In this document: one piece after another, positions 3,642 through 38,020 of the stretch
Layout of the letters: the number at the start of each line of letters is the position of its first letter
How positions within the stretch are numbered: position 1 is the stretch's first letter
From: a virus
Reading direction: 5' to 3' (one strand)
Length of the DNA: 42,005 nt
IMG/VR virus record: IMGVR_UViG_3300037088_000812
Coordinates: 64,001-106,005 of that record
The notes under the pieces: generated by a model
What the model saw: the letters and a program-made list of their open reading frames with translations, nothing else
Databases searched by the model: none
Told to the model about the DNA's origin: nothing
Translations under genes and position numbers: made by a program

Positions 3642-4205
3642 ATGTTCGTAATAGAAGGTGTCCGCTGTAGTGGGAAAAGCTTTACAGTAGATGTAATAAA
3701 AAGGAATTTCCCAAACGTGTGCGTATATAAAGATGTAGGATTGCGACTAGCTTCAGAGCGTCAATTAGATTTAGACGATTATGCTATTGGTAGAGATTTA
3801 ACTTACGCTCAAGCCTTGCCAGCATTAATGGATGACCACCTAACCGATACTGCCGTCTTCGATAGAATGTATTTTTCTTCTTATGTTTACGGAATAGCTT
3901 GGCGAAAAGGTGATAAACTGTTCTGGAAAGAACACATTGAATTAATAGAGAATATGTATGGCGACTTTCTTAAAAAAATCCACTTCATACTTTTAGACTT
4001 ACCCACCGATGCAGAACTAGATCGAATAAAGAAGATGCGTCGTCAAAAGGACAAGTGGGATAAGACGCTAGATTTCAAACGTCAGTATAGATTATATCTC
4101 GAAATCGTAAACAAAATCACTAAAGCTAAAGTGTCTTTTTTACCATCTTTTCAAAGCGAAGACTTTATAGTGAAGTTCTTTAAGGAAGTCTTTAGCCCTA
4201 GATAA
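3642..4205 (+). CDS. Deoxynucleoside monophosphate kinase, T4 gp1-like
   Basis: P-loop GVRCSGKS matches gp1 GVKRSGKD (GxxxxGK[ST] with Arg-Ser). An FDRMY motif is also shared with gp1. RBS AGAGG lies upstream. Confidence 0.7.
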   Translation: MFVIEGVRCSGKSFTVDVIKRNFPNVCVYKDVGLRLASERQLDLDDYAIGRDLTYAQALPALMDDHLTDTAVFDRMYFSSYVYGIAWRKGDKLFWKEHIELIENMYGDFLKKIHFILLDLPTDAELDRIKKMRRQKDKWDKTLDFKRQYRLYLEIVNKITKAKVSFLPSFQSEDFIVKFFKEVFSPR

Positions 4206-4211
4206 GATAAT
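4204..4211 (+). promoter_or_regulatory. AAGATAAT box (GATAAGATAATCTC) 3 nt upstream of ATG 4215
   Basis: Member of the recurrent start-proximal motif; no SD in between. Confidence 0.45.
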
Positions 4212-4214
4212 CTC

Positions 4215-4568
4215 ATGGGTTTATTCGGATTCAAGCCTTATGGCTTTACAGCTCCATATAAGCAGCATGAAGGTAAGTTAGTAGTATCAGCTTATAATAG
4301 TAAAAACTTCAAAGACGCTCTTGGTGTAGACAAAGTATACTTAGTAAAATTTACAAATCAGAATAAAAATCAAGTTGCTTATTTGGGCGTCAAATTTACT
4401 GTAGAAGCCGCGAAACATGGTAATCCAGCAATATCTGAACAAGAAGTGAGAGATATGTGGTTTCCGAAATCTACGGCTACAGGCTCTAAATCTAAAAACT
4501 GGTACAAGCTTACAGTCTTAACTAGCGCTGATAAAAAAGAAATATTCAGAGCAATTTTCAACCAATAG
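4215..4568 (+). CDS. hypothetical protein
   Basis: ORF immediately after the AAGATAATCTC box. Spurious-looking minus shadow ORF 4379-4561. Confidence 0.5.
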   Translation: MGLFGFKPYGFTAPYKQHEGKLVVSAYNSKNFKDALGVDKVYLVKFTNQNKNQVAYLGVKFTVEAAKHGNPAISEQEVRDMWFPKSTATGSKSKNWYKLTVLTSADKKEIFRAIFNQ

Positions 4569-4603
4569 AATTTCTCATCTAAGCATTTATCCCCACTAAA
4601 CGA

Positions 4604-4611
4604 AAGATAAT
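4604..4611 (+). promoter_or_regulatory. AAGATAAT box (CGAAAGATAATCTC) about 33 nt upstream of ATG 4645, with TAAGGAG RBS between
   Basis: Same 14-mer context as at 31201-31218. Confidence 0.45.
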
Positions 4612-4644
4612 CTCATACTACTTGCGTAAGGAGAATGTTGTAAG

Positions 4645-5184
4645 ATGGAAACAAATGACTACATCAATATTTTAAATCATATGCAGATCGGTGAGGATAG
4701 ATCAGAAGGTGGCTATAAGGGCCTTGCTACTAGACTATCTAACGATCTTGGCAGAGATATATCACCAGGAGCCGTTAAAAGCTATTTAAAGAAAAAGGAA
4801 AAGACGGCTGCTGTCAGAGACATAAAGCATAGAGCAAAAAGGGCTCGAAGTGAAGGTGCTTATAAATATGGCTCCAGTGGAGCCGTCTATAAGATGCTTA
4901 TAGGCCACTTTGATGAAGGCATCGAGTATAATCTAGAAGACATCGAAAGAGCCGAACTAGAAGAAGCAGTTAAAGAAGTAAAAAGTAAACACCCTGGTCT
5001 TAAACACGTATCTGCTAAGACGAGGAGTGAAACTGTAAAGAAAGCCAAGAAAGGCGAAAAAATTGGTGAGGGTGGCTTTAAAGCAGTTGAAGCCAAAGCA
5101 GCTAAGAGGTACGGCAGCGAAAAGTCAGGCAAAAGAGTGGCTGCTGCAGCCATGTGGAAAATGAAAAAGCTTAGGGGAAAATAA
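4645..5184 (+). CDS. Lys-rich basic protein (possible nucleic-acid-binding/virion protein)
   Basis: TAAGGAG RBS. About 20% K/R with a K-rich C-terminus. Confidence 0.5.
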   Translation: METNDYINILNHMQIGEDRSEGGYKGLATRLSNDLGRDISPGAVKSYLKKKEKTAAVRDIKHRAKRARSEGAYKYGSSGAVYKMLIGHFDEGIEYNLEDIERAELEEAVKEVKSKHPGLKHVSAKTRSETVKKAKKGEKIGEGGFKAVEAKAAKRYGSEKSGKRVAAAAMWKMKKLRGK

Positions 5185-5269
5185 TCTCGGAATAAGCGAT
5201 AATATTCTAATATATAGTCGTACGCCGCTGTCATAAAAGCGGCATGACTCCATGGAGAGGTAGTAGGTT

Positions 5270-6061
5270 GTGAACAATAAAGAGAAAATAATTATAAGGC
5301 TTATGACGCTCTGGGCTATAATAATGGCAGGGGCCGTTAAGCTTTGGGATAGTATTGTTAAACTTTTTGAAAATAAAAAAACTACACCTGCAACTACCAC
5401 GACTCCCAAAGCAACATTAACTGGTACGGCAGTTACGACATCAGTTGCAATACCAACTCCAACTCCAACACCAATTCCGGCGCCGGCATCACCAGCCCCA
5501 GTATCTTCTACAACTGGTAATAAAGTAGCCAACGTTATAGAAAAAATACTCCAGCTGATTGAAAAACACTGGAAAACAGTTTTGATAATTTTTGGTATCA
5601 TCATCATATTAGGAGCTGTAAATGAAATTTTTAGTTGCAGTATTAATAATAATCTTAAGCACGACATCTCTAGTCTTCAGTCAACAAACGCAGCCCTTGC
5701 CGCAACCAACTCCAACCTCACAAACAGTAACGCCGGACTCTCAGCCGACAATGCAAAGCTTACTACAGACAATGCCAGCCTCAAGTCAAACAATAACGAT
5801 CTCAAGGCAAACATTGCAAAGCTGGATGAACAAATTAGACAAAGCGCTGAGCTTGTTAAAAGACTCCAAGGCGACTATAAGCAACTTGCAGAACAGCTTG
5901 CAAGAAGCGAAAGTGATAGAGCTGAACTTGAAAAACGAATTAACCAAAGCTCAGGATTCACTGACCAGCTCAGCAGCGACAATACAGACATTACAGGAAT
6001 TGTTAGCGACGTCAGGGACAGTATCGGCCGCGCTCTCAGCCAAGATCCAGGAACAAAGTAA
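5270..6061 (+). CDS. Membrane protein with two TM helices, a Pro/Thr linker and a C-terminal coiled coil
   Basis: GGAGAGG RBS before the GTG start. Overlaps the next gene's frame for 440 nt. Confidence 0.45.
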   Translation: MNNKEKIIIRLMTLWAIIMAGAVKLWDSIVKLFENKKTTPATTTTPKATLTGTAVTTSVAIPTPTPTPIPAPASPAPVSSTTGNKVANVIEKILQLIEKHWKTVLIIFGIIIILGAVNEIFSCSINNNLKHDISSLQSTNAALAATNSNLTNSNAGLSADNAKLTTDNASLKSNNNDLKANIAKLDEQIRQSAELVKRLQGDYKQLAEQLARSESDRAELEKRINQSSGFTDQLSSDNTDITGIVSDVRDSIGRALSQDPGTK

Positions 6062-6290
6062 TCTAATAGATAGTCAAGGAATTACTATAGCCGACCAAGG
6101 TAAGAAAATAACTGACCAAGGTAAAACCATAGCAGACCAGAAGGCTCTTATAGCCCAACAAGGTACTGATATAGCTAATGTAGCTAAAGACGTCAAATCC
6201 CTACAAAACGAAAACACTATTCTAACTATAGGCGTTATTACATTGGGCATTACTACTGTAGCCGGTGTAGTTTGGGCATTAGTAAAATGA
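5622..6290 (+). CDS. Secreted/membrane-anchored coiled-coil repeat protein (signal-peptide-like N-terminus, C-terminal TM anchor, ITIADQGK-type repeats)
   Basis: GGAG RBS 6 nt upstream. N-terminal MKFLVAVLIIILSTTSLVFS and C-terminal ILTIGVITLGITTVAGVVWALVK. Confidence 0.45.
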   Translation: MKFLVAVLIIILSTTSLVFSQQTQPLPQPTPTSQTVTPDSQPTMQSLLQTMPASSQTITISRQTLQSWMNKLDKALSLLKDSKATISNLQNSLQEAKVIELNLKNELTKAQDSLTSSAATIQTLQELLATSGTVSAALSAKIQEQSNLIDSQGITIADQGKKITDQGKTIADQKALIAQQGTDIANVAKDVKSLQNENTILTIGVITLGITTVAGVVWALVK

Positions 6291-6601
6291 CACTTAATGA
6301 AGCTTTCAATAGAAAGTTCGACATGCCACCACATATAGAGGCAATATTTAATAAGCTTCGTGATCCAAGTGAGAATGTCAAAGGTTCTGAAATGAAAGTG
6401 CTTCAACAGTGGCTGTTAGGTGCCCCTACTGAAACTAAAAAATATTTCAAAAAGACTTGGTCAGCCAAAAGAAAGAAAGACAAAGTTGGTGATGAAGATG
6501 CCGAACATGAACTACATCAGCAACTCCCTGAATATCCTAGCGCATGGTCTCATCACGATACTAAACCTAACAGATGGCAAACATTCGACACACCAGGGTA
6601 A
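6287..6601 (+). CDS. hypothetical protein
   Basis: ATGA overlap with the upstream gene. Track ORF starts at 6272, but ATG 6287 is the coupled start. Confidence 0.45.
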   Translation: MTLNEAFNRKFDMPPHIEAIFNKLRDPSENVKGSEMKVLQQWLLGAPTETKKYFKKTWSAKRKKDKVGDEDAEHELHQQLPEYPSAWSHHDTKPNRWQTFDTPG

Positions 6602-6604
6602 TTG

Positions 6605-6844
6605 ATGAAAGTTTATTTACATAAAGGTGATAGGTGGTATGAAGCTTTTTTACCCGTGTACGAAAAAAAGAGATTTATTATGGCCCTGCACTTTTCTCAA
6701 ACAGCACGGTTAGATGTTTGGGATGAAAGCTATATAACACGTTGGCCATTAGTTACTAATTTTAAACCCACACTTTTAGAAATGAGAAATTCATTCATTG
6801 AAATATTTACCAACTACATCAAATATAAGTCGTTAATTAAATAA
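6605..6844 (+). CDS. hypothetical protein
   Basis: ATG 4 nt after the preceding stop. Confidence 0.4.
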   Translation: MKVYLHKGDRWYEAFLPVYEKKRFIMALHFSQTARLDVWDESYITRWPLVTNFKPTLLEMRNSFIEIFTNYIKYKSLIK

Positions 6845-6846
6845 CT

Positions 6847-7152
6847 ATGAAAGCTTTTCGTCACGAAGTGCCTGATGACCAAATAGAAAAAGGTGAGTCT
6901 GCCATAAAAACAGTAATCCCTCTTGTCCGCGTTAAATCAGATAAACCAGGTTGGGTAACTTTGTGGATTGACAAGAAAAAACCCAATATCTTTTATTTTC
7001 AACCTGTATTAGATTTTTCTCATTGGGGTGATGAAATGAAAAAAACTTTTAATTATGAACCCTCTACTGAACAAAAACAATTCATAATAAGAGACTTATT
7101 CAAAGACAAATCACAGTTTCTGTTTCTTTACAACGACTTCTATAACATGTAA
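6847..7152 (+). CDS. hypothetical protein
   Basis: ORF in the gene train. Confidence 0.45.
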   Translation: MKAFRHEVPDDQIEKGESAIKTVIPLVRVKSDKPGWVTLWIDKKKPNIFYFQPVLDFSHWGDEMKKTFNYEPSTEQKQFIIRDLFKDKSQFLFLYNDFYNM

Positions 7153-7171
7153 TAACAGCATATTTTTATCT

Positions 7172-8626: not shown

Positions 8627-8641
8627 AGTGAGAGGCATAGA

Positions 8642-9909: not shown

Positions 9910-10641
9910 GTGAGAATATTTGCAAATCATCTTGAAGCTATTAAAGAATTATTACGTGAGTTGAAAGAACTATCTATTACTACGCCATTAAACCACTATC
10001 AAGATAAATGGGTAAAAGGTGATAAAAATTTCTATACTAAAGAATTAATCGGTTATACATATAAGGTAAGTGATGCTTCTGCTAAGCTCGATGAAATGGT
10101 AGAATTCCTTTACAAAGATGAAGCTAAACCAATCATTGAGTATTGCGAGCTTGAATTGCATGACCGCTTATCTGGCGAATCTAAAAATCCAGGCGATGCC
10201 CACAAATCAAGATATAGTCTTTGGGAAGAGTTCCTTGAGGATAAGCAGAAATTCAGCTATACCTATAGTGAAAGGATAAATGACCCCAAACTCGAAAAAA
10301 ATCAAATACAAACAATCATTGACGAACTAAAAACGTCACCTGATTCTCGACAAGCAATAGTACAAATCTATAACTACCTTTATGATTCAAAGAACATTGG
10401 CGGCAAACATAGAATACCGTGCTCAATGCATTATCAGTTCTTAATACGAAATAAGAAACTTCATGGTATTTATGTAATGCGATCTAACGACTTACTTACT
10501 CATTATGTAGTGGATATTTGGCTCGCTAGCAAGATCCAGATGCACATAGCTGAACAATTAGGAATAGGCGTAGGATCTTTCACCTATTTTTCTGGCAGTT
10601 TACATGCATATGCGAAAGACTTCCCGAAGTTTGTATTTTAA
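9910..10641 (+). CDS. Deoxycytidylate (dCMP) hydroxymethylase, T4 gp42-like (thymidylate synthase superfamily)
   Basis: SPDSRQAIVQIYN matches gp42 NPDSRRGIMIYTR. CSMHYQFLIRNKKLHGIYVMRSNDLLTHYVVD matches gp42 CTNTVQYLIRDKKINAVVNMRSNDVVFGFRND. GSLHAY matches GSLHVY. Catalytic Cys is present, and Asp replaces the TS Asn that specifies uracil. RBS TAGGAGAAAG; GTG start. Confidence 0.8.
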   Translation: MRIFANHLEAIKELLRELKELSITTPLNHYQDKWVKGDKNFYTKELIGYTYKVSDASAKLDEMVEFLYKDEAKPIIEYCELELHDRLSGESKNPGDAHKSRYSLWEEFLEDKQKFSYTYSERINDPKLEKNQIQTIIDELKTSPDSRQAIVQIYNYLYDSKNIGGKHRIPCSMHYQFLIRNKKLHGIYVMRSNDLLTHYVVDIWLASKIQMHIAEQLGIGVGSFTYFSGSLHAYAKDFPKFVF

Positions 10642-12276: not shown

Positions 12277-13209
12277 ATGTATTATCAAAATGACGACATC
12301 AATCGTATATACTTCAATGCAATCAGCGACCTATATCAATTAGGTAATCTAACTGGTAAAAGAAAAGAATTACCATTTTTAAATTTCACGCTCACAAACT
12401 CTGATAAAAATATTCTCTTAGCACCTATGTTTGCCCAACGTAATTGGCCGTGGATTTTAAGAGAATGCTCTGATAGGCTATTTAGTATAAAGAATCCAGG
12501 CATAGCTTTTCGTTATAGCAAGAACTGGGAAAACCGCCAAGAAGATTCGGGTTTATATTCCTACCACTATTCAGACCGGTTAAATGGTCAAATGAAAGAA
12601 CTATTGTCTAAGAATAAACATGGCCGAGATAAAATTGTGATGGTTTGGAACAAGGGAGACACAGGGATAGACGGTCGTCAACCTTGCACAATTTTCTTAC
12701 AACCATTTATGGAACACGATAACAAGATGAGTATGTTAGTTACTATGAGAAACAATGATATGATTAACATTTTTCCAAGCGACATATTCATTCATAGTTC
12801 TTATCTGAAATTTTGGTGCATAAAAAACAACATTGAATACAAGAACATCTACTGGGTATCAGCAATTGCATATTACCAAAAGAAACGAGATAAGATCAAG
12901 TTTGTAGACCGACTTATAAATCAATGGAATGGTAACTATGATAATATTCAAACTACTCACTGGGATAAAGATATAATAAACGACCTTGAGATCAAAGAAA
13001 CCATAGAAGCAAATGTCCGAGATGGAGGTAAGATTGAATTGATTAACGGTCTTAAGACACCATATGTCCGAGAATGGACTAACATCATGTTAATGGCTGA
13101 AGCTAAAATGCGAGACGACAAAGAGACATTTTCTCAGTTAAAGAACTTAACATGGACTACAGAGTTTGCTTTTATTCGTGATAGTTTACTCACCCAGAAG
13201 TTTCGATAG
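12277..13209 (+). CDS. Second thymidylate-synthase/dCMP-hydroxymethylase family paralog (pyrimidine C5-modifying enzyme, specificity unknown)
   Basis: DKIVMVWNKGD matches the TS RRIIVSAWNPAD block. QPCTIFLQPF carries the catalytic Cys. MRNNDMINIFPSDIF matches gp42 MRSNDVVFGFRNDY, again with Asp at the TS-Asn position. About 100-aa N-terminal extension. GGGGGAAG RBS. Confidence 0.65.
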   Translation: MYYQNDDINRIYFNAISDLYQLGNLTGKRKELPFLNFTLTNSDKNILLAPMFAQRNWPWILRECSDRLFSIKNPGIAFRYSKNWENRQEDSGLYSYHYSDRLNGQMKELLSKNKHGRDKIVMVWNKGDTGIDGRQPCTIFLQPFMEHDNKMSMLVTMRNNDMINIFPSDIFIHSSYLKFWCIKNNIEYKNIYWVSAIAYYQKKRDKIKFVDRLINQWNGNYDNIQTTHWDKDIINDLEIKETIEANVRDGGKIELINGLKTPYVREWTNIMLMAEAKMRDDKETFSQLKNLTWTTEFAFIRDSLLTQKFR

Positions 13210-15366: not shown

Positions 15367-15429
15367 AAATCCTCGCGAACTGACAAGTTAATATAAAATG
15401 CATTTTTTATTAAGTGAGGTGCACAAAAG

Positions 15430-16323: not shown

Positions 16324-16412
16324 CATATTTAAAACAAATAAAACGTCTGTCAGACGATTAAAAACAAAAGTGTTTCGACTCACTTTAAAAACGTTTAAGG
16401 AGAAAAGTAAAT

Positions 16413-17279
16413 ATGGACGAGAAGAAAGTAAGCAGCAAAGGCACGAATCTGGAAAAACTTAAGAGAGCATTCGAGGCCGAGAAATCTAACAATGAAGGCG
16501 GGATGAATTGGTGGAGGCCCCAGTTTGGGATCAACACAGTAAGAATCCTACCAGCTGAAGATCCAGAAGATATCTTTTTCTTTCCTACCGCACGACACAA
16601 AATCGACGACGATTATTACTACTGCCTAAAGTATCATACAGATCCAGATACTGGACGTGGTGAAAAGTGTCCTGTCTGCGAAACTAGAAAGAGGCTCTTC
16701 CGAAGCGGAGATCCTACTCTAATTAGAATTGCGAAGGACATCAAAGCAAAGAAACAGTTCCTGATGAACTTGATCGATAGAGCCAGTGAAGATCCTGCAA
16801 AGGTATTCATTTTCGCCGCAGGCGTGAAGATCAATGATAAGATCTGTTCATCAATGATCGATGACAACATCGATATTACTGACGTCGAAAAAGGCTATGA
16901 CTTCATAGTCAAGAAGGAAGAAGGGCCCAAGACTGAAAATGGAACTTTCCCTTCCTATGATAATTCAAAGGCAAAGAGAGCTTCTACTCCTTTGCACGAT
17001 GACGCTGAAGTTGTACAGGCAATTCTAGAATCACGAAATGACCTCAAGTCAATTCCACGATTCGACTCTCCCGACATTCTACAGAATGCCATTGATTCCT
17101 ATATCAAGAATCTAACTGAGGGCGGCTCAAAGAACGATAAGTTCTATGAGGAAGAGAATAAGGGTGAGGAAGCACCAGCACCTTCACAAAAGGCAAAAGC
17201 TTCAATCTCTGACTTCAAAAAGAAACTACAAGATTCACTCAAGGTAGAAGATGATGAAGAGACAGAGGAAGACGAGTAA
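16413..17279 (+). CDS. Single-stranded DNA-binding protein, T4 gp32-like
   Basis: AAGGAG RBS. VRILPAEDP...FFF..ARHK....YYC..........EKCPVCE parallels the gp32 core (AVIRFLPS...H...C...CPVC zinc site). Highly acidic C-terminal tail (EDDEETEEDE) as in gp32. Confidence 0.85.
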   Translation: MDEKKVSSKGTNLEKLKRAFEAEKSNNEGGMNWWRPQFGINTVRILPAEDPEDIFFFPTARHKIDDDYYYCLKYHTDPDTGRGEKCPVCETRKRLFRSGDPTLIRIAKDIKAKKQFLMNLIDRASEDPAKVFIFAAGVKINDKICSSMIDDNIDITDVEKGYDFIVKKEEGPKTENGTFPSYDNSKAKRASTPLHDDAEVVQAILESRNDLKSIPRFDSPDILQNAIDSYIKNLTEGGSKNDKFYEEENKGEEAPAPSQKAKASISDFKKKLQDSLKVEDDEETEEDE

Positions 17280-18259: not shown

Positions 18260-18520
18260 GTGAGTATCATGGAAAATGAAAATGTTGAAATGAAAAGTAG
18301 ATACCCTAACGACGAATTATTAGAAGATAAAGAAATGGCTGATAAAATATTGGCCAACGATAAAGAAACAGGAATAATGATTTGGGGAGACGACGGACCT
18401 GACGGCAAGACTATATTCACTAACATTGGTAATGTTACAATAAGCCTACCAGAAACAGTCTTTTACTCTCTTACTAAGACTACACAATTAGCAGCAAAAA
18501 AACTTTTAAACATAGAGTGA
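18260..18520 (+). CDS. hypothetical protein
   Basis: Track ORF from GTG 18260; ATG 18269 is an alternative start. Confidence 0.4.
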   Translation: MSIMENENVEMKSRYPNDELLEDKEMADKILANDKETGIMIWGDDGPDGKTIFTNIGNVTISLPETVFYSLTKTTQLAAKKLLNIE

Positions 18521-19623: not shown

Positions 19624-19866
19624 ATGGAGCGAAAGTTATCTCAGCATGATGATCGCCCTGGTTGGCAAAATGAAAACTTTGAATACCTACTCATACGACT
19701 AATGGAAGAGCAGGGCGAGCTTAACAACCTGATGATGGACTTAGGCGAGCTCAGCGAGTTATCTTCTGATGCAGACATACAAGACGTCATTAACGAAGCT
19801 ACAGATGTTGGAAACTTTGCAATGATGATTGCAGACAATGCGAGGCGCTTCATCAAAGATAATTAA
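19624..19866 (+). CDS. Small MazG-like NTP pyrophosphohydrolase domain protein
   Basis: LMEEQGELNNLMMD and ATDVGNFAMMIADNA resemble the two MazG helices. Track ORF starts at 19534; ATG 19624 avoids overlap (19564 is an alternative). Confidence 0.45.
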   Translation: MERKLSQHDDRPGWQNENFEYLLIRLMEEQGELNNLMMDLGELSELSSDADIQDVINEATDVGNFAMMIADNARRFIKDN

Positions 19867-21554: not shown

Positions 21555-22487
21555 ATGTCAAATAAATACTTATTGCTAGATGGGAACAATTTAGCGCATA
21601 TTGCGTTCCACAGAGCTAAGTCAATAATCATCAAAAAGAAGAAAGCCCTAGCTGAGGCTGAAAAGCTTATTCTTCCTGAAGGTGTCATTGACCAAACTGA
21701 TCACTCTATAATAGAAAGCGTGATGTACCACGTATTTTTTTTAAAGTTACACAAACACTTTAAGAAATTCAAGGGCTATCAGTTTATAGTATGTTGGGAC
21801 AACCCAGGTTCGCATGAATGGCGAAGAGAAATCTATCCAGAATATAAGGTCCGTCGCGTTTATGATCAAGACCCGGTCTGGCGAGTTATGTTCAATGGAA
21901 TAGCTAAACTTCAAAACATACTCTCAGCTTATCCTATAGTTCAAGTCATTATAGAAAAGCTCGAGGCAGATGATATACTCTATGCCTACTCAAGTGTGCT
22001 TAGAGAGTATGGTGAAGTCGTCATTATATCAGGTGATAGCGACCTTATACAAGCCGTACAAGACTTTGGTGTAAGATTATACCACCCAATTACTGACAAG
22101 TGGGTTAAGGCTCCTACTACATATGATTATTGTTTAGCAAAAGCAATACGGGGAGACAACACAGATGACATACCTGGTATTTATGGTTATGGTCCAGTCA
22201 AGTCTACTGCGCTGGCCGAAGCTTGTAAAAAGGACCCTAGCGCAATAAATAAGCTAGACAAAGACCAGCAGGTAATCGTATCCAGGAACATGCACCTAAT
22301 ACAGATTAAGAACAACCCTAATCTGATCAAAGCAAAACTAGAAGTAGCTAATATCGTAGACATTAATAACCACTTCAAAATCAATACGCAGAGAATCAAG
22401 AAGTTCTATTTTGACAACAAGCTCAAGGCTCTACTAGAAGACTTCGATTCAGTAATAAGTATATTTTCAGATGAATCGGAAGAATGA
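21555..22487 (+). CDS. 5'-3' exonuclease / flap endonuclease (T4 RNase H family)
   Basis: LLLDGNNLAHIAFH; FIVCWDNPGSHEWRREIYPEYKVRR; EADDILYAY; VIISGDSDLIQAV; and helix-3-turn-helix GDNTDDIPGIYGYGPVKSTAL. Confidence 0.8.
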   Translation: MSNKYLLLDGNNLAHIAFHRAKSIIIKKKKALAEAEKLILPEGVIDQTDHSIIESVMYHVFFLKLHKHFKKFKGYQFIVCWDNPGSHEWRREIYPEYKVRRVYDQDPVWRVMFNGIAKLQNILSAYPIVQVIIEKLEADDILYAYSSVLREYGEVVIISGDSDLIQAVQDFGVRLYHPITDKWVKAPTTYDYCLAKAIRGDNTDDIPGIYGYGPVKSTALAEACKKDPSAINKLDKDQQVIVSRNMHLIQIKNNPNLIKAKLEVANIVDINNHFKINTQRIKKFYFDNKLKALLEDFDSVISIFSDESEE

Positions 22488-22953: not shown

Positions 22954-23060
22954 GCAGCATTCTCATTTTGAGAGAAAGTAGGAACGTAGCTCTAAAGTCC
23001 TTTTACATGTAAACTGCCTATGAATTCGTGTCCAGCGTATAATCTTCTCACAGCCCGCTC

Positions 23061-23068
23061 AAGATAAT
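23061..23068 (+). promoter_or_regulatory. AAGATAAT box 34 nt upstream of GTG 23102 (AAAGGTGG RBS between). A TATAAT at 23038-23043 and the conserved 22-mer 23015-23036 lie just upstream
   Basis: Direct observation of motif order: 22-mer, TATAAT, AAGATAAT, RBS, start. Confidence 0.4.
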
Positions 23069-27619: not shown

Positions 27620-27641
27620 TTATAGTTATCTTTTGTACATT

Positions 27642-27649
27642 AAGATAAT
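27642..27649 (+). promoter_or_regulatory. AAGATAAT box 3 nt upstream of ATG 27653. The complementary-strand AAGATAAC (27625-27632) serves the divergent minus gene
   Basis: 33-nt divergent intergenic region carries one box per strand. Confidence 0.45.
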
Positions 27650-27652
27650 TTT

Positions 27653-28237
27653 ATGAAGAAGAAAATTAAACGACCGCAAACTAAAGAACAAAGGAAATTT
27701 GAGCGGGAAAAGAGAAACGCCCGTTACGGCAAACACTGGGATGAAATAAGACAATATGTTTACCAGCGTGATGGATTTATGTGCAGAGCGTGTGGAAAGG
27801 GCGTACCAGAAGTAAAGAAACTCAATGCCCATCATATACTTTTACTTAGAGTAAGTCAGACAAACGATATAAGAAACTTAGTTACGCTCTGCGACGAATG
27901 TCATAAAATAATAGAAACTAAAGCTCTTAATTTACTTAAGGCTGGCGGGCATAGATTTGAAGTTTTTAGAATGACGCACAGATATTTATATGAGTGTAAA
28001 TTAAAAAGACAACAAGCTCTGTTAGAAGAATTAAATAAAAAACATGGCGAGCCGAAGCCCGCCATAGAGTTAGATTATAAACCTAATGTTGCAGTTGTCG
28101 TAGATGGTCCTGATAGCTTAGGTGCAACCGCTGGTGCCGCTACTGGTGCTGGTGTCGCTGGGACTACCGGTGCTGGTACCGCTACTGGTGCTGGTGCCGC
28201 TACTGGTGCTGGTGGGACTACCGGTGCCGCGGGCTGA
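27653..28237 (+). CDS. HNH endonuclease with low-complexity Gly/Ala/Thr C-terminal tail
   Basis: CRACGK...NAHHILLLRVSQTNDIRNLVTLCDECH is an HNH motif. The tail is encoded by 9/18-nt tandem repeats and overlaps the convergent minus gene. Confidence 0.7.
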   Translation: MKKKIKRPQTKEQRKFEREKRNARYGKHWDEIRQYVYQRDGFMCRACGKGVPEVKKLNAHHILLLRVSQTNDIRNLVTLCDECHKIIETKALNLLKAGGHRFEVFRMTHRYLYECKLKRQQALLEELNKKHGEPKPAIELDYKPNVAVVVDGPDSLGATAGAATGAGVAGTTGAGTATGAGAATGAGGTTGAAG

Positions 28238-28442: not shown

Positions 28443-28450
28443 ATTATCTT
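28443..28450 (-). promoter_or_regulatory. AAGATAAT box (minus strand), about 18 nt upstream of minus gene start 28425
   Basis: The reverse complement of ATTATCTT reads AAGATAAT. Confidence 0.4.
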
Positions 28451-28470: not shown

Positions 28471-28478
28471 AAGATAAT
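28471..28478 (+). promoter_or_regulatory. AAGATAAT box 3 nt upstream of ATG 28482
   Basis: No SD between box and start. Confidence 0.45.
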
Positions 28479-29076: not shown

Positions 29077-29325
29077 TTGAAAATCATAATTGGTAAATGG
29101 TTCAAAGAGGAATCGTATTATTTCTATGCGATTAACAAAAATGAACACATTGTTATAAGCTTTAATTATAATGCAGTTGAATTATATAAAACTGGAGAAT
29201 TAGTATTAGGTCAAAAATTACCTCCTTTTATCAAAGAAGTTGAACCAATCCAATCTAATAAATTAAACATCATTTTAATAACAGGCATATTCACTAAACT
29301 AAAAGATGAAAGGTCTAAAGGATAA
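29077..29325 (+). CDS. hypothetical protein (TTG start in track)
   Basis: ORF; weak start evidence. Confidence 0.3.
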   Translation: MKIIIGKWFKEESYYFYAINKNEHIVISFNYNAVELYKTGELVLGQKLPPFIKEVEPIQSNKLNIILITGIFTKLKDERSKG

Positions 29326-29334
29326 GTTAATAAT

Positions 29335-31206: not shown

Positions 31207-31214
31207 AAGATAAT
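31207..31214 (+). promoter_or_regulatory. AAGATAAT box (CGAAAGATAATCTC) 22 nt upstream of ATG 31236, with GAAGGAGG RBS between
   Basis: Same 14-mer as at 4601-4614. Confidence 0.45.
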
Positions 31215-31235: not shown

Positions 31236-31664
31236 ATGAAGTACCTATTTTTTACAAGTGTTTTCTTTCTTTTAGTTAGTGTGGCGGTCTTCGCACAGAA
31301 GATCGCAAAGGAATATCAAGGTACTTGGTATATAAATAATATGTCTACAGATGGCGGACAATCATATAGTGAATTTGATACCCCTAAGATAGCAGAGGTA
31401 GATTCAGATAAGATAATATTAGGTGAAGGTGATAAGCAAGTCACGTTAAATATAGAAAGCGTAGATAAGAGAGTAAATGAAGATGGAATTACCGCTTATT
31501 TAATATTGTTCAAAGAGGATAATGAAGCTTTCATAGTAATGACAGACGGTCATGATTATATGTTGGTAATAGCAGATAAGAACACTCACGTCGAAGCTAT
31601 AAGATGTAATATAACTAGAAATATGCCGTCGTTTAATGTGCCAAAGGTGGCAGACGGAGTTTAA
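31236..31664 (+). CDS. Secreted protein (cleavable signal-peptide-like N-terminus MKYLFFTSVFFLLVSVAVFAQ)
   Basis: Strong RBS; N-terminal signal peptide pattern. Confidence 0.55.
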   Translation: MKYLFFTSVFFLLVSVAVFAQKIAKEYQGTWYINNMSTDGGQSYSEFDTPKIAEVDSDKIILGEGDKQVTLNIESVDKRVNEDGITAYLILFKEDNEAFIVMTDGHDYMLVIADKNTHVEAIRCNITRNMPSFNVPKVADGV

Positions 31665-32019: not shown

Positions 32020-32330
32020 TGGCCGCCACTGTTGCCACCGTTATGGCCGCCACCGTTATGACCACTGCCACCTGGTGCTACAGCCATTTCCACTGTTTCC
32101 GCCGCCGTTATGACCACTGTTTCCGCCGCCGTTATGACCACTGTTTCCGCCGCCGTTATGACCGCCATCACAAGGAGGATGCGGTGGAGGACAAGGTGGC
32201 TTTGGCGGAGGACAAGGAGGTTTTGGTGGAGGACATGGAGGAGGTTTTGGTGGAGGACATGGAGGTGGACCTGGAGGAGGTGTTGGCCCAGGAGGCGTTG
32301 GAGTAGGACCGGGTCCTGGATTATGTCCTC
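32020..32330. repeat. Tandem nucleotide repeats (3 x 24 nt at 32091-32162, plus GGAGGACAAGG/TGG..TTTGG units 32170-32300)
   Basis: Direct reading of exact 24-nt units CACTGTTTCCGCCGCCGTTATGAC. Confidence 0.85.
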
Positions 32331-32526
32331 CCGTATTAATGATTGTTAAATCACTATTACATGGCCATGGCGTACATGGAACGCATGGGATATATGGAGG
32401 CCATATAATAAGAGGTATACTAATTTCTGCTACCCCACTATCCAGCTTCTTAGTATCTACCTTAGATTTATCAGAAGAAGTTATAATAGTTTTCTTCTCA
32501 ATGACAATAGTTTTCTTCACTATCAC
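32056..32526 (-). CDS. Pro-rich repeat protein (PPCPPPKPP repeats; GHNGGGNS x3 C-terminal repeats)
   Basis: GTG start in the track. Encoded by tandem nucleotide repeats. The open frame continues upstream to 32709 and there encodes a lipobox-like signal (IIRAILFGLLAVLVGC) without a canonical start. Confidence 0.45.
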   Translation of the reverse strand: MIVKKTIVIEKKTIITSSDKSKVDTKKLDSGVAEISIPLIIWPPYIPCVPCTPWPCNSDLTIINTGGHNPGPGPTPTPPGPTPPPGPPPCPPPKPPPCPPPKPPCPPPKPPCPPPHPPCDGGHNGGGNSGHNGGGNSGHNGGGNSGNGCSTRWQWS

Positions 32527-32802
32527 CTTATCAGCTTCTACTACTTTATTACAATGTCGCTGATAAATACCTACGTCATTACCAGAGGTAGATTCTTTCT
32601 TGCAACAATAGTAGTTATAATAATAATTATTGGTCGTTGTGACTGGGTTATAACAACCAACTAGGACTGCTAAGAGTCCAAATAATATAGCCCTGATGAT
32701 TACATTTATTTACTCGCATATTTAAATTGGCATAAATTGGTTAGCTTTTCTTATGAGAATAATTTAAGTTCATCAGCGACATCGCTCTTTGTTTCTTTAA
32801 GG

Positions 32803-32817
32803 TTATCTTAAGATAAT
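32803..32817. promoter_or_regulatory. Palindromic double box TTATCTTAAGATAAT between divergent genes (minus Pro-rich gene and plus glycosyltransferase)
   Basis: Perfect 14-nt palindrome (32803-32816) containing AAGATAA on both strands. Confidence 0.45.
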
Positions 32818-34022: not shown

Positions 34023-34039
34023 TTTTAAACAAGAATTAG

Positions 34040-34068
34040 GTGGCCGAGTATGAATCTCTCGGCCACCC
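34040..34068 (+). terminator. Hairpin terminator candidate (GGTGGCCGAG-tatgaatct-CTCGGCCACC)
   Basis: 10-bp GC-rich stem after the glycosyltransferase stop; weak T-tract. Confidence 0.45.
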
Positions 34069-34087
34069 TTATCTATAATCCAACTAC

Positions 34088-34095
34088 AAGATAAT
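34088..34095 (+). promoter_or_regulatory. AAGATAAT box 5 nt upstream of ATG 34101
   Basis: No SD between box and start. Confidence 0.45.
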
Positions 34096-34100
34096 TCATA

Positions 34101-34764: not shown

Positions 34765-35313
34765 CTAAGCAGCAAAACTCTTTCTTCGAATCAAGTCAAC
34801 CACTTCCAAGGTTATACTGCCAATAATGAGAATCGTTGCAAGAGTTGTGAAAGTTGGCGAAAGCGGAATGAAGATAGCTATGAGTCCTACGCCAAAGCCC
34901 AAGACATCTAGCCATCTTGGAATAAGACTCTTGTATGGTTTTTTCGTGATTTGAAGCTTTGAAATGCGAGGTTGACGATATTCATACGCCTGGCCATTGG
35001 GGTGCCTTTCCCGTTCTCGCTGTGCTTCTTCGACAAGATTTTTTGTTTCTAATTCTTCAAGCGTCAAAGGCTTGGGTTGATGAGCTCGTTTGTATGACAG
35101 CACTTCAGCTTGTATTTCAGTTTCTTCTTGTTCTCGCTGTTCTCTAATTTTTATATACTGTTCTCGGGCTTGGCGTTTTTCTTCAGCAATCCTCTCTTCG
35201 GTGATTTGGTTCAGGCGCTGTCTTTCAATTTCAACGGGTGTTGGCCCAGACATAGCACTTCCAGCTATGACACCAATCCCGAAGCTTTTCCAGTCAAACC
35301 CTTTCTTATCCAT
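34765..35313 (-). CDS. Membrane protein with charged coiled-coil segment and two C-terminal TM helices
   Basis: Minus-strand ORF. Hydrophobic segments LDVLGFGVGLIAIFIPL and LATILIIGSITL. Confidence 0.45.
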   Translation of the reverse strand: MDKKGFDWKSFGIGVIAGSAMSGPTPVEIERQRLNQITEERIAEEKRQAREQYIKIREQREQEETEIQAEVLSYKRAHQPKPLTLEELETKNLVEEAQRERERHPNGQAYEYRQPRISKLQITKKPYKSLIPRWLDVLGFGVGLIAIFIPLSPTFTTLATILIIGSITLEVVDLIRRKSFAA

Positions 35314-35342
35314 ACCTAAGTATATATCATAGTCGAAAGTAT

Positions 35343-35350
35343 AAGATAAA
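35343..35350 (+). promoter_or_regulatory. AAGATAAA variant box 3 nt upstream of ATG 35354 (first gene of the tandem array)
   Basis: CGAAAGTATAAGATAAACTTATG. Confidence 0.35.
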
Positions 35351-35353
35351 CTT

Positions 35354-35581
35354 ATGTGGATGTATGTAGAGGCTGAGAAGTTTGACGCTTGGTGGCATGA
35401 CGGTGGTGTATTATATACGTCTGGTCAAACCAATATAGGATCAAACGACAAACCTGGAAAATTTACAATATGGCCTGATTGGGGTGAATCTATGCCAGCT
35501 ATGATACATGCCAGTAGAACACATCTGCGTAAGTTAATTCCAACTATATTTAATGCCAAAGAAATAATGAGCAGTTCATGA
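35354..35581 (+). CDS. Tandem small-protein family member (C-terminus RKLIPTIFNAKEIMSS)
   Basis: Shared C-terminal motif [RK]xL[IL]xx[IL][FW]xxKx[IF]. Confidence 0.5.
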   Translation: MWMYVEAEKFDAWWHDGGVLYTSGQTNIGSNDKPGKFTIWPDWGESMPAMIHASRTHLRKLIPTIFNAKEIMSSS

Positions 35582-35826
35582 AACTAAAGAGAGGTATGTT
35601 AATAAAGACAAATTATGAAGCCTACTGTCTAGTGACTAAAGTTGAGGGCCTTAATGTTTTTGGTGTTTGGTTAACTTCTACTTATTTAGACGTTAGTCCT
35701 CTGCCGGCGTTTGATGACGCCAATGACACTAAACAATTGACAAAAGTTAATCGGGCAGAAACGCGATATTTTCTAAAGAGCATATTCGAATGTTTTGACA
35801 AAGGATTTGTAAGAACAAAAATATGA
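35578..35826 (+). CDS. Tandem family member (C-terminus TRYFLKSIFECFDKGF)
   Basis: ATGA overlap; motif variant. Confidence 0.45.
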   Translation: MKLKRGMLIKTNYEAYCLVTKVEGLNVFGVWLTSTYLDVSPLPAFDDANDTKQLTKVNRAETRYFLKSIFECFDKGFVRTKI

Positions 35827-36086
35827 AATTATTTAAATGGGTTGGCGCGAAGGACATTATATTATTACCTTTTACTCGTATATTATTTAGAGATGACGTT
35901 TCTTATAAAATAATCTGGGGGGACAAAACAAGCGGTGAGTGGGAATCAGCTAATCTTCCTGAGGTCAGTCTTAAATTATATAAGCCTATGGAAAATGTAA
36001 AGCTACAACCAGTATCCTATAAAACTTTAGTGGAGTTTATATGGAGTAAAAAGTTTAGCGACTTTTTGAAGAAGACCTTAAAATGA
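35823..36086 (+). CDS. Tandem family member (KTLVEFIWSKKFSDF)
   Basis: ATGA overlap. N-terminus MKLFKWVGAKDIILLPF resembles that of 36358. Confidence 0.5.
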   Translation: MKLFKWVGAKDIILLPFTRILFRDDVSYKIIWGDKTSGEWESANLPEVSLKLYKPMENVKLQPVSYKTLVEFIWSKKFSDFLKKTLK

Positions 36087-36361
36087 CTTGGCAAAATGTT
36101 AATGCTGGCGAGTGGTTGAGAAGATCTTTTAAAGAATCTTTCTCTACTGGTGTAACCTACATTCATGTAAGTTATAAGACTGACAAGTTGGTAAGATACA
36201 AAGTATTCACGCTTATCAAAGGTCCCAGTAAGCTAGTATGTTATAAGAATGAATTAGTCAACCTAGACACTAAAATTCCAGCACCTTTTAAAAAGACTAA
36301 AACATATAGACCGCTAATATCAATCATTTTTAATACTAAAGAGTTTGATGTAAGATTATGA
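36083..36361 (+). CDS. Tandem family member (RPLISIIFNTKEFDV)
   Basis: ATGA overlap; motif. Confidence 0.5.
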   Translation: MTWQNVNAGEWLRRSFKESFSTGVTYIHVSYKTDKLVRYKVFTLIKGPSKLVCYKNELVNLDTKIPAPFKKTKTYRPLISIIFNTKEFDVRL

Positions 36362-36627
36362 AAGAAAAGCTTTTCAAATGGCACAAACGTGAAGATATGA
36401 TAGCCTTGCCATACAGAATATTAAAGCATCGGCATTATGCAATAATTTATAAAGAAAAAGGTGCCCCATATTGGACTGAGGGCACAATACATAAAGAAGA
36501 CCTAGAAAAATTTCATCAGATTAACTATAACTCAAAATTTGATTTTAGAGAGTTTATTAAAAATATGTTTAGCTGGGATTGGTCATTGCTGCCAACTATG
36601 AGCTGGACCCCGGGGTATTATAAATGA
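36358..36627 (+). CDS. Tandem family member (REFIKNMFSWDWSL)
   Basis: ATGA overlap; N-terminus MKEKLFKWHKREDMIALPY. Confidence 0.45.
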   Translation: MKEKLFKWHKREDMIALPYRILKHRHYAIIYKEKGAPYWTEGTIHKEDLEKFHQINYNSKFDFREFIKNMFSWDWSLLPTMSWTPGYYK

Positions 36628-36863
36628 TGTGGTGGTATTCAAATGGTCGCGACGTGTGGCAAGCTGGTAATAGATATTTTAAGTATTTAAACGACACACT
36701 TCGTGTTACAATCTTAGACACAGATGAGTTAATAGGAACACCCAAAGCCTCTGATGTATTAATGCGCAAGTTGTTTATAGTAATCTTCAAAGCTAAAGAC
36801 TTTGTAATAAATGAACCGAAGTGGAAAATGCCTAAGGGCATCTCTATAGTAGGTTTAAAATGA
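36624..36863 (+). CDS. Tandem family member (RKLFIVIFKAKDFVI)
   Basis: ATGA overlap; motif. Confidence 0.5.
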   Translation: MMWWYSNGRDVWQAGNRYFKYLNDTLRVTILDTDELIGTPKASDVLMRKLFIVIFKAKDFVINEPKWKMPKGISIVGLK

Positions 36864-37084
36864 AAGAACCATTCATGTTTTTCTATTCCACTGAAGTAGC
36901 TGATAATTGGAGAGTGCATAAAAATAATGATGCATTTAAGTATGACTTTGCAAGCAGCGCACTTATAACTACTGATCATCAATTTTCTACTACAGTAGGA
37001 ATGAGACCAGCAACTAGAAAACAATTGCAGAAACTTGTCCTTCGCATTTTTCAAGCTAATAGAATAACGAGTTATAATACATGA
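36860..37084 (+). CDS. Tandem family member (KLVLRIFQANRITS)
   Basis: ATGA overlap; motif. Confidence 0.5.
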   Translation: MKEPFMFFYSTEVADNWRVHKNNDAFKYDFASSALITTDHQFSTTVGMRPATRKQLQKLVLRIFQANRITSYNT

Positions 37085-37521
37085 AAGCAAATTATGGATT
37101 AATTGAATCAATATTTGAAGACCCTAGTTATCTAAGTAAAGATGGTCCAAGAAGGTTACCTGAAAACGCAGATGTGGGTCTTTGTATACTATATGCTAAA
37201 ATATGGCCTGAGTGGAAGAACGCTTTTGAAGACCCTAGTCAATATAACGTGCATCCGACAGAAGCCGTTTTAACGCAGTTCCAAAATGCTTTAGATACCA
37301 ACAAGAAAAAATACAACAAATATAATATGAGCCTTGATGATACAGACGACGGTTGGTCATTATATAAACAACAATATAAATGGAGAGTTTCTTTTACAGC
37401 TTATCCAAAAGGTAATTACACTTATTATATTTCTATAGGTATAAAGAAAAACGGTACTCTAGATATTAATGATATAGCAATAGATAAAGAAGAAGAAGAA
37501 TTTGATTGGACCGAAACCTAA
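37081..37521 (+). CDS. hypothetical protein (146 aa; not an obvious family member)
   Basis: ATGA overlap; lacks the C-terminal motif. Confidence 0.45.
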   Translation: MKANYGLIESIFEDPSYLSKDGPRRLPENADVGLCILYAKIWPEWKNAFEDPSQYNVHPTEAVLTQFQNALDTNKKKYNKYNMSLDDTDDGWSLYKQQYKWRVSFTAYPKGNYTYYISIGIKKNGTLDINDIAIDKEEEEFDWTET

Positions 37522-37727
37522 TGGTAAGATATAAAAACTACGGTAAAACAATAGTATGGATAGTAGGTAACAAATTCCTCATACATGAATATGAAGGACG
37601 ATTGATTGCTGTAACTAAATATAGAGCGTGGCACCCTGGTGAAGAAACAGCGACCCAAAACATAGAACATATACATGAATTAATCCGTGCACTGTTTAGA
37701 GCAAAAGCAATGAAGGTAGAGCTATGA
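37506..37727 (+). CDS. Tandem family member (HELIRALFRAKAMKV)
   Basis: Motif. Confidence 0.5.
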   Translation: MDRNLMVRYKNYGKTIVWIVGNKFLIHEYEGRLIAVTKYRAWHPGEETATQNIEHIHELIRALFRAKAMKVEL

Positions 37728-37963
37728 TCTTACCCAAGATAAAGCGAATTGTAAGATTCAACAAGGATTTCTTTTTAATCACTCGAACCAGAAACGGCGA
37801 ACCGTATGGCCCTATGGTTTGGCCCGTAGATAAATTAATAGAATACAGCCCAGGTTCAAATTTATATGCTGAAGACTATAAAGACGCCGAAGAGCTTACA
37901 CAAACGGAGCGTCGATCTTTAATACCCATGTTTTTTACTTTTAGATGGACTAAAGCAACTTAA
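37724..37963 (+). CDS. Tandem family member (RSLIPMFFTFRWTKA)
   Basis: ATGA overlap; motif variant. Confidence 0.45.
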   Translation: MILPKIKRIVRFNKDFFLITRTRNGEPYGPMVWPVDKLIEYSPGSNLYAEDYKDAEELTQTERRSLIPMFFTFRWTKAT

Positions 37964-38012
37964 CCTAATTTCAAATCTTCAAACTCTACACATATAGTTA
38001 TCCCTTACTAAT

Positions 38013-38020
38013 AAGATAAT
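38013..38020 (+). promoter_or_regulatory. AAGATAAT box 6 nt upstream of ATG 38027
   Basis: No SD between box and start. Confidence 0.45.

Follow-up and report, generated by a model that had tools for sequence, protein, structure and literature searches.

The locus analyzed here raises the question of which signal serves genes that carry a short conserved box, often in place of a Shine-Dalgarno sequence (SD), immediately before their start codons. It is a stretch of 42,005 nucleotides (nt) from an uncultured phage (positions 64,001 to 106,005 of the IMG/VR virus record IMGVR_UViG_3300037088_000812), herein referred to as the window. In a first-pass annotation, the octamer AAGATAAT and close forms of it were noticed upstream of at least 11 start codons on both strands, and three roles were proposed: a phage promoter giving leaderless or very short-leader transcripts, a promoter conserved up to the transcription start in the manner of single-subunit or phage-encoded RNA polymerases (RNAPs), and an operator or translation-initiation element. 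The analysis described below indicates that the box is probably a phage-specific promoter consisting of a -10 element only, from which leaderless or short-leader mRNAs would be produced.

The window belongs to a metagenomic contig of 178,186 bp (ENA ERZ28656093, scaffold_57), identified by an exact-protein match. It was joined with its 10-kb flanks, giving 59.8 kb of the 178-kb contig for analysis, and was compared with seven loci of relatives having 36-71% protein identity. Six of these are contigs found through homologs of a 613-amino-acid (aa) protein encoded in the window (L013-L018), and the seventh was found through a flank gene (L019).

Abundance and Position of the Box

In total, 12 copies of AAGATAAT were found in the window, versus 5.1 +/- 2.2 expected from dinucleotide shuffles. 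Since 1 of 100 shuffles also reached 12 copies, the excess in copy number by itself is modest. Ten of the 12 copies are located within 45 nt upstream of a called start on the same strand, a zone that comprises 5% of strand positions, and 11 are start-proximal once a 116-aa minus-strand gene, dropped from the greedy gene set, is counted. An unbiased scan of all k-mers located within 45 nt upstream of starts in a mechanically built gene set ranked AAGATAAT first of all 8-mers for upstream enrichment (binomial p 6.6e-12) and AAGATAA first among 7-mers, with 14 of its 27 copies in the upstream zone. This positional enrichment, and not the copy number, is the decisive point for the reality of the box. 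The core consensus is AAGATAA(T/C). Single-mismatch variants found before real gene starts vary mainly at -8 (AAGTTAA three times, AAGGTAA twice, and AAGCTAA once; numbering as in the position matrix below), and A-11 and T-7 are unchanged in them. A literature search for AAGATAAT as a phage promoter returned primer matches only.

The coordinates given in the first-pass annotation are all correct. Boxes directly before a start codon without SD were found at 4204, 27642, 28471, 34088, 35343, and 38013, as had been described, and boxes farther upstream with an intervening SD at 4604, 23061, and 31207. The longer CGAAAGATAATCTC or GATAAGATAATCTC context is present at three sites, as claimed (4604, 31207, and 4204), and a fourth extended-context copy, AAGATAATCTCATG, is located 8.6 kb to the left of the window. 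Both tight divergent gaps contain one box per strand, and the perfect palindrome TTATCTTAAGATAA is located at 32803-32816. The statement that nearly all copies are start-proximal also holds (11 of 12), the sole clearly intragenic exact copy being that at 31410, which is probably a chance or non-functional one. Three sites were absent from the annotation: an exact box at 19856, a variant at 29324 with the layout AAGTTAAT-N3-ATG, and a possible variant at 15385. All sites are listed in Table 1.

Distance to Start Codons and Absence of SD

In 173 kb of sequence from this phage family, AAGATAA is present in 114 copies. An ATG opening an open reading frame (ORF) of at least 40 codons follows exactly 4 nt after the 7-mer in 21 of these copies, after 6 nt in 6, and after 7 nt in 2. 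Unrelated 7-mers reach at most 7 at any offset from 0 to 10. A position matrix was built from 27 adjacent-type sites with the A of ATG as +1, which places the box at -11 to -5. Information in this matrix is limited to the 7-mer, apart from a weak pyrimidine preference at -4, -3, and -1 (a pyrimidine at -1 in 20 of 27 sites). The base at +1 is A in 24 of the 27 sites, which is not independent evidence because ATG was used for the selection of sites. No conservation was found from -36 to -12 of the 27-site matrix, neither a -35 element nor TG at -15/-14, and nothing beyond +1 except ATG. In 21 sites, nAAGAT occupies -12 to -7 and ends 6 nt before the ORF, which is the geometry of a -10 element serving a leaderless gene.

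The presence of an SD (dG <= -6 kcal/mol) varies with the arrangement of the box. An SD was found in none of the 32 box-adjacent genes, in 50% of the genes with a box 8-45 nt upstream, whose SDs are the strongest of all, and in 27% of the other genes. Thus, box-adjacent genes lack SD, as leaderless genes do, and other genes of the same genome use it. At least nine well-placed sites are located 12-40 nt upstream of a gene having a separate SD. Of 27 such leadered sites, 16 have A as the fifth base after AAGATAA, as do most of the clearly intergenic ones, which fits a transcription start at this base with or without an ATG. The many SD-less genes are also a hint of a host that uses SD poorly.

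The full inverted box, TTATCTT, was found within 40 nt upstream of 10 of the 30 adjacent-type boxes, versus 1.2% of random 40-mers. The two boxes stand 0 to 20 nt apart, and this variability suggests independent back-to-back promoters and is the principal objection to a dimer operator. In the window, the box at 27625-27632 on the minus strand is back-to-back with that at 27642 on the plus strand, and the two divergent ATG-ATG gaps are 33 and 56 bp long. Similar or shorter gaps were found in L013, L015, and L019 (25-56 bp overall). The two boxes are the only conserved content of these gaps. Since both divergent genes need a promoter and the gaps are tiny, only a -10-only promoter would fit, and this is the main argument for a role at the DNA level over that of an RNA-processing site.

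Conservation of the Box in Related Phages

Homologs of the 613-aa protein form a graded series, their identity falling from 70 to 36%. When the unbiased k-mer scan was repeated on L013-L015 (70, 48, and 38% identity), AAGATAA or AGATAA again came out first or second for upstream enrichment. The box precedes the HNH endonuclease gene in four phages, and the HNH orthologs of L013, L016, and L018 have a box arrangement identical to that at 27642. In three phages, the box precedes the WG-repeat gene on the opposite strand. It is also kept before the operon starting with the 139-aa gene (the ortholog of the 23061 site is retained in L013 and L014), before the gene for the 142-aa secreted protein, and before the 70-aa gene. 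L013, the 70% relative, shares the palindrome TTATCTTAAGATAA with the window, but not the sequences flanking it. At the 32810 and 34088 sites, the intergenic sequences of the window and L013 have diverged beyond alignment, and the box remains.

Additionally, the arrangement of the box changes between orthologs. The box is adjacent to the 197-aa gene in the window and located 12 nt upstream of it in L018. Genes of the 613-aa family are preceded by an exact AAGATAA-N4-ATG in L017, by a variant box in the window, and by a plain SD inside an operon in L016 and L018. Such turnover is expected of promoters and not of a ribosome-binding element. The orthologous N-termini of the HNH (MKKKIKRPQTKEQ / MSKRPKTKQQK / MKRPKTPAQKK), WG-repeat, and 613-aa families begin at the Met located right after the box, and the adjacent ATGs are therefore true starts.

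Prediction of a Compact Promoter for Leaderless mRNAs

Direct observations are the motif itself, the constancy of its geometry, its retention across the family, the dichotomy in SD use, and the absence of other conserved promoter elements. We propose that AAGATAA(T/C) is the core and apparently the sole sequence-specific promoter element, acting in the role of a -10 element, and that transcription would start at the fifth base after AAGATAA. In the commonest layout, this base would be the A of the ATG, giving a leaderless mRNA whose 5'-terminal AUG would be translated without SD. An ATG located 2-3 nt further would leave a 2-3 nt leader, and a gene located 12-40 nt further would receive a short leader bearing a strong SD. 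The predicted register of the box is n(-12) A(-11) A G A T(-7) A A(-5). Factors of the sigma70 family capture A-11 and T-7 on promoter melting. Because these two bases are retained in the box, its likeliest reader would be the bacterial core RNAP with a specificity subunit of the sigma70 family. This subunit may be encoded by the phage, being similar in logic to gp55 of T4, or may be a host sigma retargeted by phage proteins, in either case with no -35 contact. Back-to-back promoters within 25-56 bp would be possible because no -35 element is needed. Two other readings of the same region were rejected: GATAAT as the -10 hexamer, with which the start would follow the ATG at N4 sites, and a classical sigma70 -35/-10 promoter, since consensus matches of this type are not above shuffles.

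Among the three roles proposed initially, the first one, a phage promoter giving leaderless or very short-leader transcripts, is favored by the N4 spacing, the SD dichotomy, the divergent boxes, and the conservation in relatives. The second, a long promoter of the single-subunit-RNAP type, is at odds with the confinement of information to 7-8 bp and with the absence of conservation from -36 to -12 or beyond +1. The third, an operator or a translation-initiation element, is disfavored by boxes standing at a variable distance together with a separate SD and by orthologs switching between the arrangements.

Several points weigh against the proposed promoter. Promoter action at the DNA level, the start position, the nature of the polymerase or sigma factor, and the temporal class are all deduced from sequence. 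Conservation of G(-9) and AA(-6/-5) is not a sigma70 feature. T(-12) and TG(-15/-14) are usual in -10-only promoters of primary sigma factors, and neither was found here, the composition at -12 being A6/C8/G3/T10. A T4-like register (-13 to -6) would place the start of N4 sites within the ATG or beyond it, so the box must sit 1-2 bp closer to the start than in T4. The fifth-base test is not a clean one, since A is somewhat enriched at this base in other copies of the 7-mer as well (22 of 46). Roughly half of the AAGATAA copies lie within genes and have no evident role, and the 7-mer holds only about 12 bits; either extra specificity is needed, or the intragenic copies also fire. Finally, no sigma-, gp55-, gp33-, or RNAP-like proteins were found by PHROG and Pfam searches, which covered about 60 proteins, in about 60 kb of the 178-kb contig and about 110 kb of the relatives' loci, and no homolog of the gp45 sliding clamp was found in the covered part of the genome.

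Alternative Explanations

It is possible, if doubtful, that a phage-encoded specificity factor or polymerase of an unrecognised type contacts the DNA from -11 to -5. If so, a whole temporal gene class would be tied to leaderless translation, possibly together with a phage-altered initiation of translation. The system would then parallel that of phage phiYS40, but its host lineage would be non-thermophilic and would not normally rely on leaderless expression.

Another explanation, in which the box is the promoter of a phage-encoded RNAP (a multisubunit non-virion enzyme of the phiKZ/AR9 type or a single-subunit one) instead of the host core with a sigma-type factor, is unlikely. A short motif near the start with no -35 element does resemble the late promoters of AR9 and phiKZ; moreover, the genome is large (178 kb, with about 60 kb covered) and encodes many large ORFs without a family assignment. 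Nevertheless, no RNAP-like Pfam or PHROG match was found in these 60 kb or in about 110 kb of the relatives' loci, and the A-11/T-7 pattern and the 6-nt distance suit the recognition of a -10 element by a sigma-type factor. Single-subunit (T7-like) promoters are conserved continuously over about 17-23 bp, from about -17 to +6, and the 7-8 bp of information found here is too short for them, which rules out a T7-type promoter. Transcripts of AR9 carry untranslated regions of 26-491 nt and are not leaderless (PMC5312081).

An RNA-level signal is quite unlikely. According to this explanation, AAGAUAA would be recognized and cleaved by a phage or host endoribonuclease, which would cut polycistronic transcripts just upstream or 12-40 nt upstream of AUGs, so that leaderless or short-leader mRNAs would arise post-transcriptionally. 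MazF and T4 RegB are comparable endoribonucleases that act on other sequences. Such a site would also account for the strand specificity, the fixed distance to AUG, and the lack of SD at adjacent sites, and some boxes are indeed located inside the 3' end of the upstream gene (4204 in the window and 46895 in the extended contig). In T4, primer-extension ends cannot separate initiation from processing (PMC2988020), a point which counts for this explanation. However, the divergent gaps of 25-56 bp would then need promoters inside the opposite gene, where nothing is conserved. The boxes head operons or follow hairpins and are not located between most co-transcribed genes. The A-11/T-7 register and the 6-nt distance match the geometry of a -10 element, and no candidate ribonuclease was identified.

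It is very unlikely that the box is an operator bound by a phage repressor or activator and overlapping promoters of unrelated sequence, the palindrome and the TTATC copies being dimer sites. The perfect palindrome TTATCTTAAGATAA, common to the window and the 70% relative, agrees with such a role, as does the presence of TTATC within 40 nt upstream of 14 of the 30 adjacent-type boxes, versus 7% in the background. However, 10 of these 14 TTATC copies are the box of the divergent neighbor, inverted copies are separated by anything between 0 and 20 nt, and the majority of sites consist of one oriented half-site. An operator gives no reason for the fixed 4-nt distance to ATG or for the link with the loss of SD, and no other conserved promoter-like sequence is present for it to regulate.

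Highly improbable is a non-canonical ribosome-binding or initiation element, in which AAGAUAA at -11 to -5 would replace the SD through the 3' end of 16S rRNA, a phage translation factor, or a RegA-like repressor: the box does fill the exact position of the SD at adjacent sites, whose genes are SD-less, and UAAG can pair with the 3'-terminal CUUA of 16S rRNA, but the same box is located 12-40 nt upstream of genes having their own strong SD, orthologs alternate between both arrangements so that the element is not always in the translation-initiation region, most internal operon genes are box-free though they need initiation, and the minus-strand partners in divergent gaps argue for a role at the DNA level.

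Comparison With Known Promoter Systems

By analogy, the proposed -10-only promoter would be of a known kind, represented by the T4 late promoters, the leaderless middle and late genes of phages phiYS40 and P23-45, and the Deinococcus ORFs with an adjacent -10 element. The consensus, its near invariance, and the conservation of the N4 spacing across an uncultured family of large phages are new.

[quoted passage not shown] In the first 50 kb of phiYS40, TG-n-TAnnnT was seen by eye 6-10 nt before many ATGs, without SD. The likeness to phiYS40 and P23-45 thus includes a large lytic phage, a -10-type element near ATG, and leaderless middle and late mRNAs, the latter being a prediction in the present case. 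The near-invariant AAGATAA has neither TG nor T(-12), whereas phiYS40 uses loosely defined extended -10 sequences that resemble those of its host (TGTGATAAT and TGCTATAAT) and are read by the host sigma-A holoenzyme. The host phylum of phiYS40 itself uses leaderless genes widely. The phages are also unrelated in sequence, with no tblastn match for the 613-aa protein and no Thermus phage among the gp32 and DnaE matches listed.

The T4 late promoter consists of a single 8-bp box, TATAAATA, at -13 to -6, with no -35 element and in either strand (PMC2988020). Here too, one tightly kept 8-bp AT-rich box was found, at a predicted -10 position and on both strands, with no -35 element, boxes precede structural and endonuclease genes, and the phage encodes a single-strand DNA-binding protein of the gp32 family. 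The two systems differ in the box itself (AAGATAAT here versus TATAAATA) and in its register (predicted -11 to -4 versus -13 to -6), and T4 late mRNAs are not characteristically leaderless. Additionally, the replicase is DnaE-type here and gp43-type in T4, and homologs of gp55, gp33, and gp45 were not found in the covered 60 kb or so.

Leaderless ORFs of Deinococcus can be transcribed from a TANNNT -10 motif alone, which stands about 6-7 bp before the ORF (PMC12340547). The likeness to Deinococcus-Thermus lies in a -10 element adjoining the ORF, at a distance of 6 nt for the predicted element in our case, as an alternative to SD-led genes of the same genome. There, however, the motif is a degenerate TANNNT of host housekeeping genes, whereas here it is a phage-specific, near-invariant 7-mer of an uncultured phage family. 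Late promoters of AR9 (AACA-N6-TA/G) and phiKZ (TATG) are likewise short motifs immediately upstream of the start without a -35 element (PMC5312081). Their motifs differ from the box, and they need genes for a phage multisubunit RNAP, none of which were detected by sequence in the covered parts.

The proposed promoter would provide a testable transcription map for an uncultured lineage of about 178 kb that encodes a gp32-type single-strand DNA-binding protein and a DnaE-type polymerase and whose cultured relatives do not exceed about 32% protein identity. In the window, some 15 start sites are predicted, and the boxes fix several gene starts. This lineage would be a second, independent phage group with -10-only promoters fused to start codons. 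The arrangement would be stable among relatives with as little as about 40% protein identity, although single genes change from the leaderless to the SD-led state or back. The near-invariant 7-mer may serve as a handle for finding the responsible sigma factor or polymerase, and may help to recognize family members in metagenomes and to correct gene starts. Thus, for a box-adjacent flank gene, gene callers took a downstream ATG, giving 124 aa instead of 129 aa.

Genes Preceded by the Box

In the window and its flanks, boxes are located before HNH endonuclease genes, the WG-repeat gene, the 197-aa/613-aa block, and the genes for the secreted protein, the lipoprotein, and the 391-aa protein. The box also heads two long arrays of tiny overlapping ORFs (from 35354 and from 38027 onward), and the variant AAGTTAAT precedes an operon ending in the tape-measure gene. 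Boxes were additionally found before the NUDIX gene, before small genes beside DnaE genes, and, both here and in a relative, before genes of the replication module. Between 5 and 19 kb, where the genes for replication and nucleotide metabolism are located, boxes are essentially absent. This uneven distribution suggests that the box genes form one temporal class, probably middle or late.

In the relatives, the gene for the 613-aa protein is located directly before tape-measure-like, hub-like, and Phage_base_V genes, and the 23-34 kb part of the window is therefore plausibly a tail module. The first-pass proposal that the box marks the late, structural half of the window was supported in part: relatives have tail-type genes next to the 23-34 kb part, and the operon with the tape-measure gene has a variant box in front of it. 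On the other hand, boxes are also located before HNH and NUDIX genes, the arrays of tiny ORFs, and replication-module genes.

Table 1. Predicted boxes and selected genes in the window (coordinates in the window; leader classes are predictions).
Position	Strand	Feature	Sequence to the start and gene	SD	Remarks
4204..4211	+	Box AAGATAAT	CTC, ATG 4215 (117-aa gene)		Adjacent (leaderless) class
4604..4611	+	Box, AAGATAA-TCTC-A	33 nt to ATG 4645	AAGGAG	Leadered class
9910-10641 and 12277-13209		Two thymidylate-synthase-family genes			One canonical, the other very divergent (E 3e-9)
15385..15392	+	Possible variant box AAGTTAAT	63-nt gap before 181-aa gene, ATG 15430	GTGAGGTG	Weak call
16413-17279		T4 gp32-family single-strand DNA-binding protein			Family search; PF08804
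19856..19863	+	Box	12 nt before ATG 19876	AAGAGG	Leadered class
21555-22487		5'-3' exonuclease			Family search
23061..23068	+	Box	33 nt before GTG 23102	AAGGTGG	Leadered class; heads 139/220/518/260-aa operon
27625..27632	-	Box AAGATAAC	5 nt before ATG 27619 (387-aa WG-repeat gene)		Predicted 2-nt leader
27642..27649	+	Box AAGATAAT	TTT, ATG 27653 (HNH endonuclease)		Adjacent class
27653-28237	+	HNH endonuclease			Family search
28443..28450	-	Box, AAGATAA-TTAA-A	ATG 28425 (116-aa gene)	ACGGAGG	Leadered class
28471..28478	+	Box AAGATAAT	AGT, ATG 28482 (197-aa gene)		Adjacent class
29324..29331	+	Variant box AAGTTAAT	AAT, ATG 29335 (613-aa putative tail-module protein)		Variant
31207..31214	+	Box	21 nt before ATG 31236 (142-aa secreted protein)	GAAGGAGG	Leadered class; kept in L013
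31410..31417	+	Exact AAGATAAT inside 142-aa gene	No start codon after		In-gene copy kept in L013
32802..32817	both	Overlapping box pair, palindrome TTATCTTAAGATAA	Plus box to 391-aa gene (ATG 32847), minus box to Pro-rich lipoprotein gene
34088..34095	+	Box AAGATAAT	TCATA, ATG 34101 (70-aa gene)		Very short leader
35343..35350	+	Box AAGATAAA	CTT, ATG 35354		Adjacent class; heads array of ~10 small overlapping ORFs
38013..38020	+	Box AAGATAAT	TGTCTA, ATG 38027		Very short leader; heads next array, ~11 small ORFs

Some sites have additional features. A dTMP-kinase-like gene, assigned by family search, is located directly upstream of the box at 4204, which begins within its stop codon. The box at 34088 is preceded by a 10-bp GC-rich hairpin (about 34041-34067). 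At 18324-18337, AAGATAAAGAAATG is present in frame within a called 86-aa ORF (GTG 18260); the real gene may be a leaderless ORF of 61 codons with ATG 18335.

The Pro-rich gene served by the minus-strand box of the palindrome (32056-32700, minus strand) is an ortholog of an intact lipoprotein of L013 (MKKFLYLFGILAILVGCYNP...). In the window, the part encoding the signal peptide and lipobox (..IIRAILFGLLAVLVGCYNP..) is in frame and has no ATG, GTG, or TTG, the available codons being ATA, AAT, GTA, and ATC. Two further assemblies likewise lack a start codon there. Probably, therefore, the GTG called at 32526 is not the true start, or else initiation uses a non-canonical codon. The number of C-terminal GGHNGGGNS repeats differs between assemblies (3, 2, and 1).

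Genome Context of the Window

The window has a G+C content of 37%, nearly all of its genes are located on the plus strand, and no tRNAs were found in it. Exact-protein matches identified the same phage in more than 20 further assemblies. Cultured phages gave no match to 12 kb of sequence in megablast or to the 613-aa protein in tblastn. With the gp32, DnaE, and exonuclease queries, the best cultured phages, namely cyanophages and Bacillus phages, have only 22-32% identity in single proteins; the phage is therefore without a published transcript map for comparison. No match was found in an IMG/VR scan for the 613-aa family, nor in a GTDB genome scan with a 17-sequence alignment carried out for a clue to the host. 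The Rfam scan of the window detected no family.

The left flank contains genes for a split DnaE-type polymerase, a CCA-adding enzyme, and a NUDIX protein, and the right flank contains a probable tape-measure gene. The DnaE-type polymerase is broken into several ORFs in the left flank (L010, 1-4403) and in a relative (L019, 5667-9518). In L019, it has intein/Hint signatures and extra genes interrupting it, and genes for homing endonucleases are frequent across the phage family. The pair of thymidylate-synthase-family genes is accompanied by the dTMP-kinase-like gene and a pyrophosphohydrolase gene, and relatives carry genes for dCMP deaminase and dUTPase/DCD. This pyrimidine gene set is reminiscent of phages producing a modified pyrimidine.

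The last part of the window (40743-42005, about 1.2 kb, G+C 40%) contains only short doubtful ORFs and many direct and inverted repeats, in contrast with the tightly packed coding sequence of the rest of the window.

Other Candidate Signals

Intergenic regions without a box were searched by k-mer enrichment for another class of promoter, with only weak candidates as the result, TTTCGAC and TATTGCAT. Four of the 16 copies of TTTCGAC are located upstream of genes. The sequence GTTTCGACT recurs in box-less upstream regions, at 16375-16383 before the gp32-like gene, at 35325-35335 on the minus strand before a 182-aa gene, and at about 13160 on the minus strand of L015, and is a candidate element of another class of promoter or regulator.

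An element of about 20 nt, GCCTAT(N3-4)TTCGTGTCCAG, is present in four copies in the window (23016-23045, 40923-40949, 41371-41397, and 41470-41489) and also at about 2465-2485 of L013. One of the four copies is located 40 nt upstream of the box at 23061. All four are preceded by a CTCTAAAG-like stretch, and a -35-like TTGAC(A/G)GCCAGT is located about 45 nt upstream of the three copies at 40.9-41.5 kb. The 41.3-41.5 kb region resembles a diverged duplication of 92 nt. TRF and Rfam find nothing in the regions of this element. It could mark promoters of a second class followed by a conserved 5' leader, or it could represent small RNAs or iterons.

Finally, TTCTCAT(C/T)T was found right after the stop codon that opens four intergenic gaps, at 2469, 4569, 12221, and 22954 (for example, AATTTCTCATCTAAGCA and TTTTTCTCATCTAAACCCC). 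This sequence may be a signal for the transcript end or for processing.

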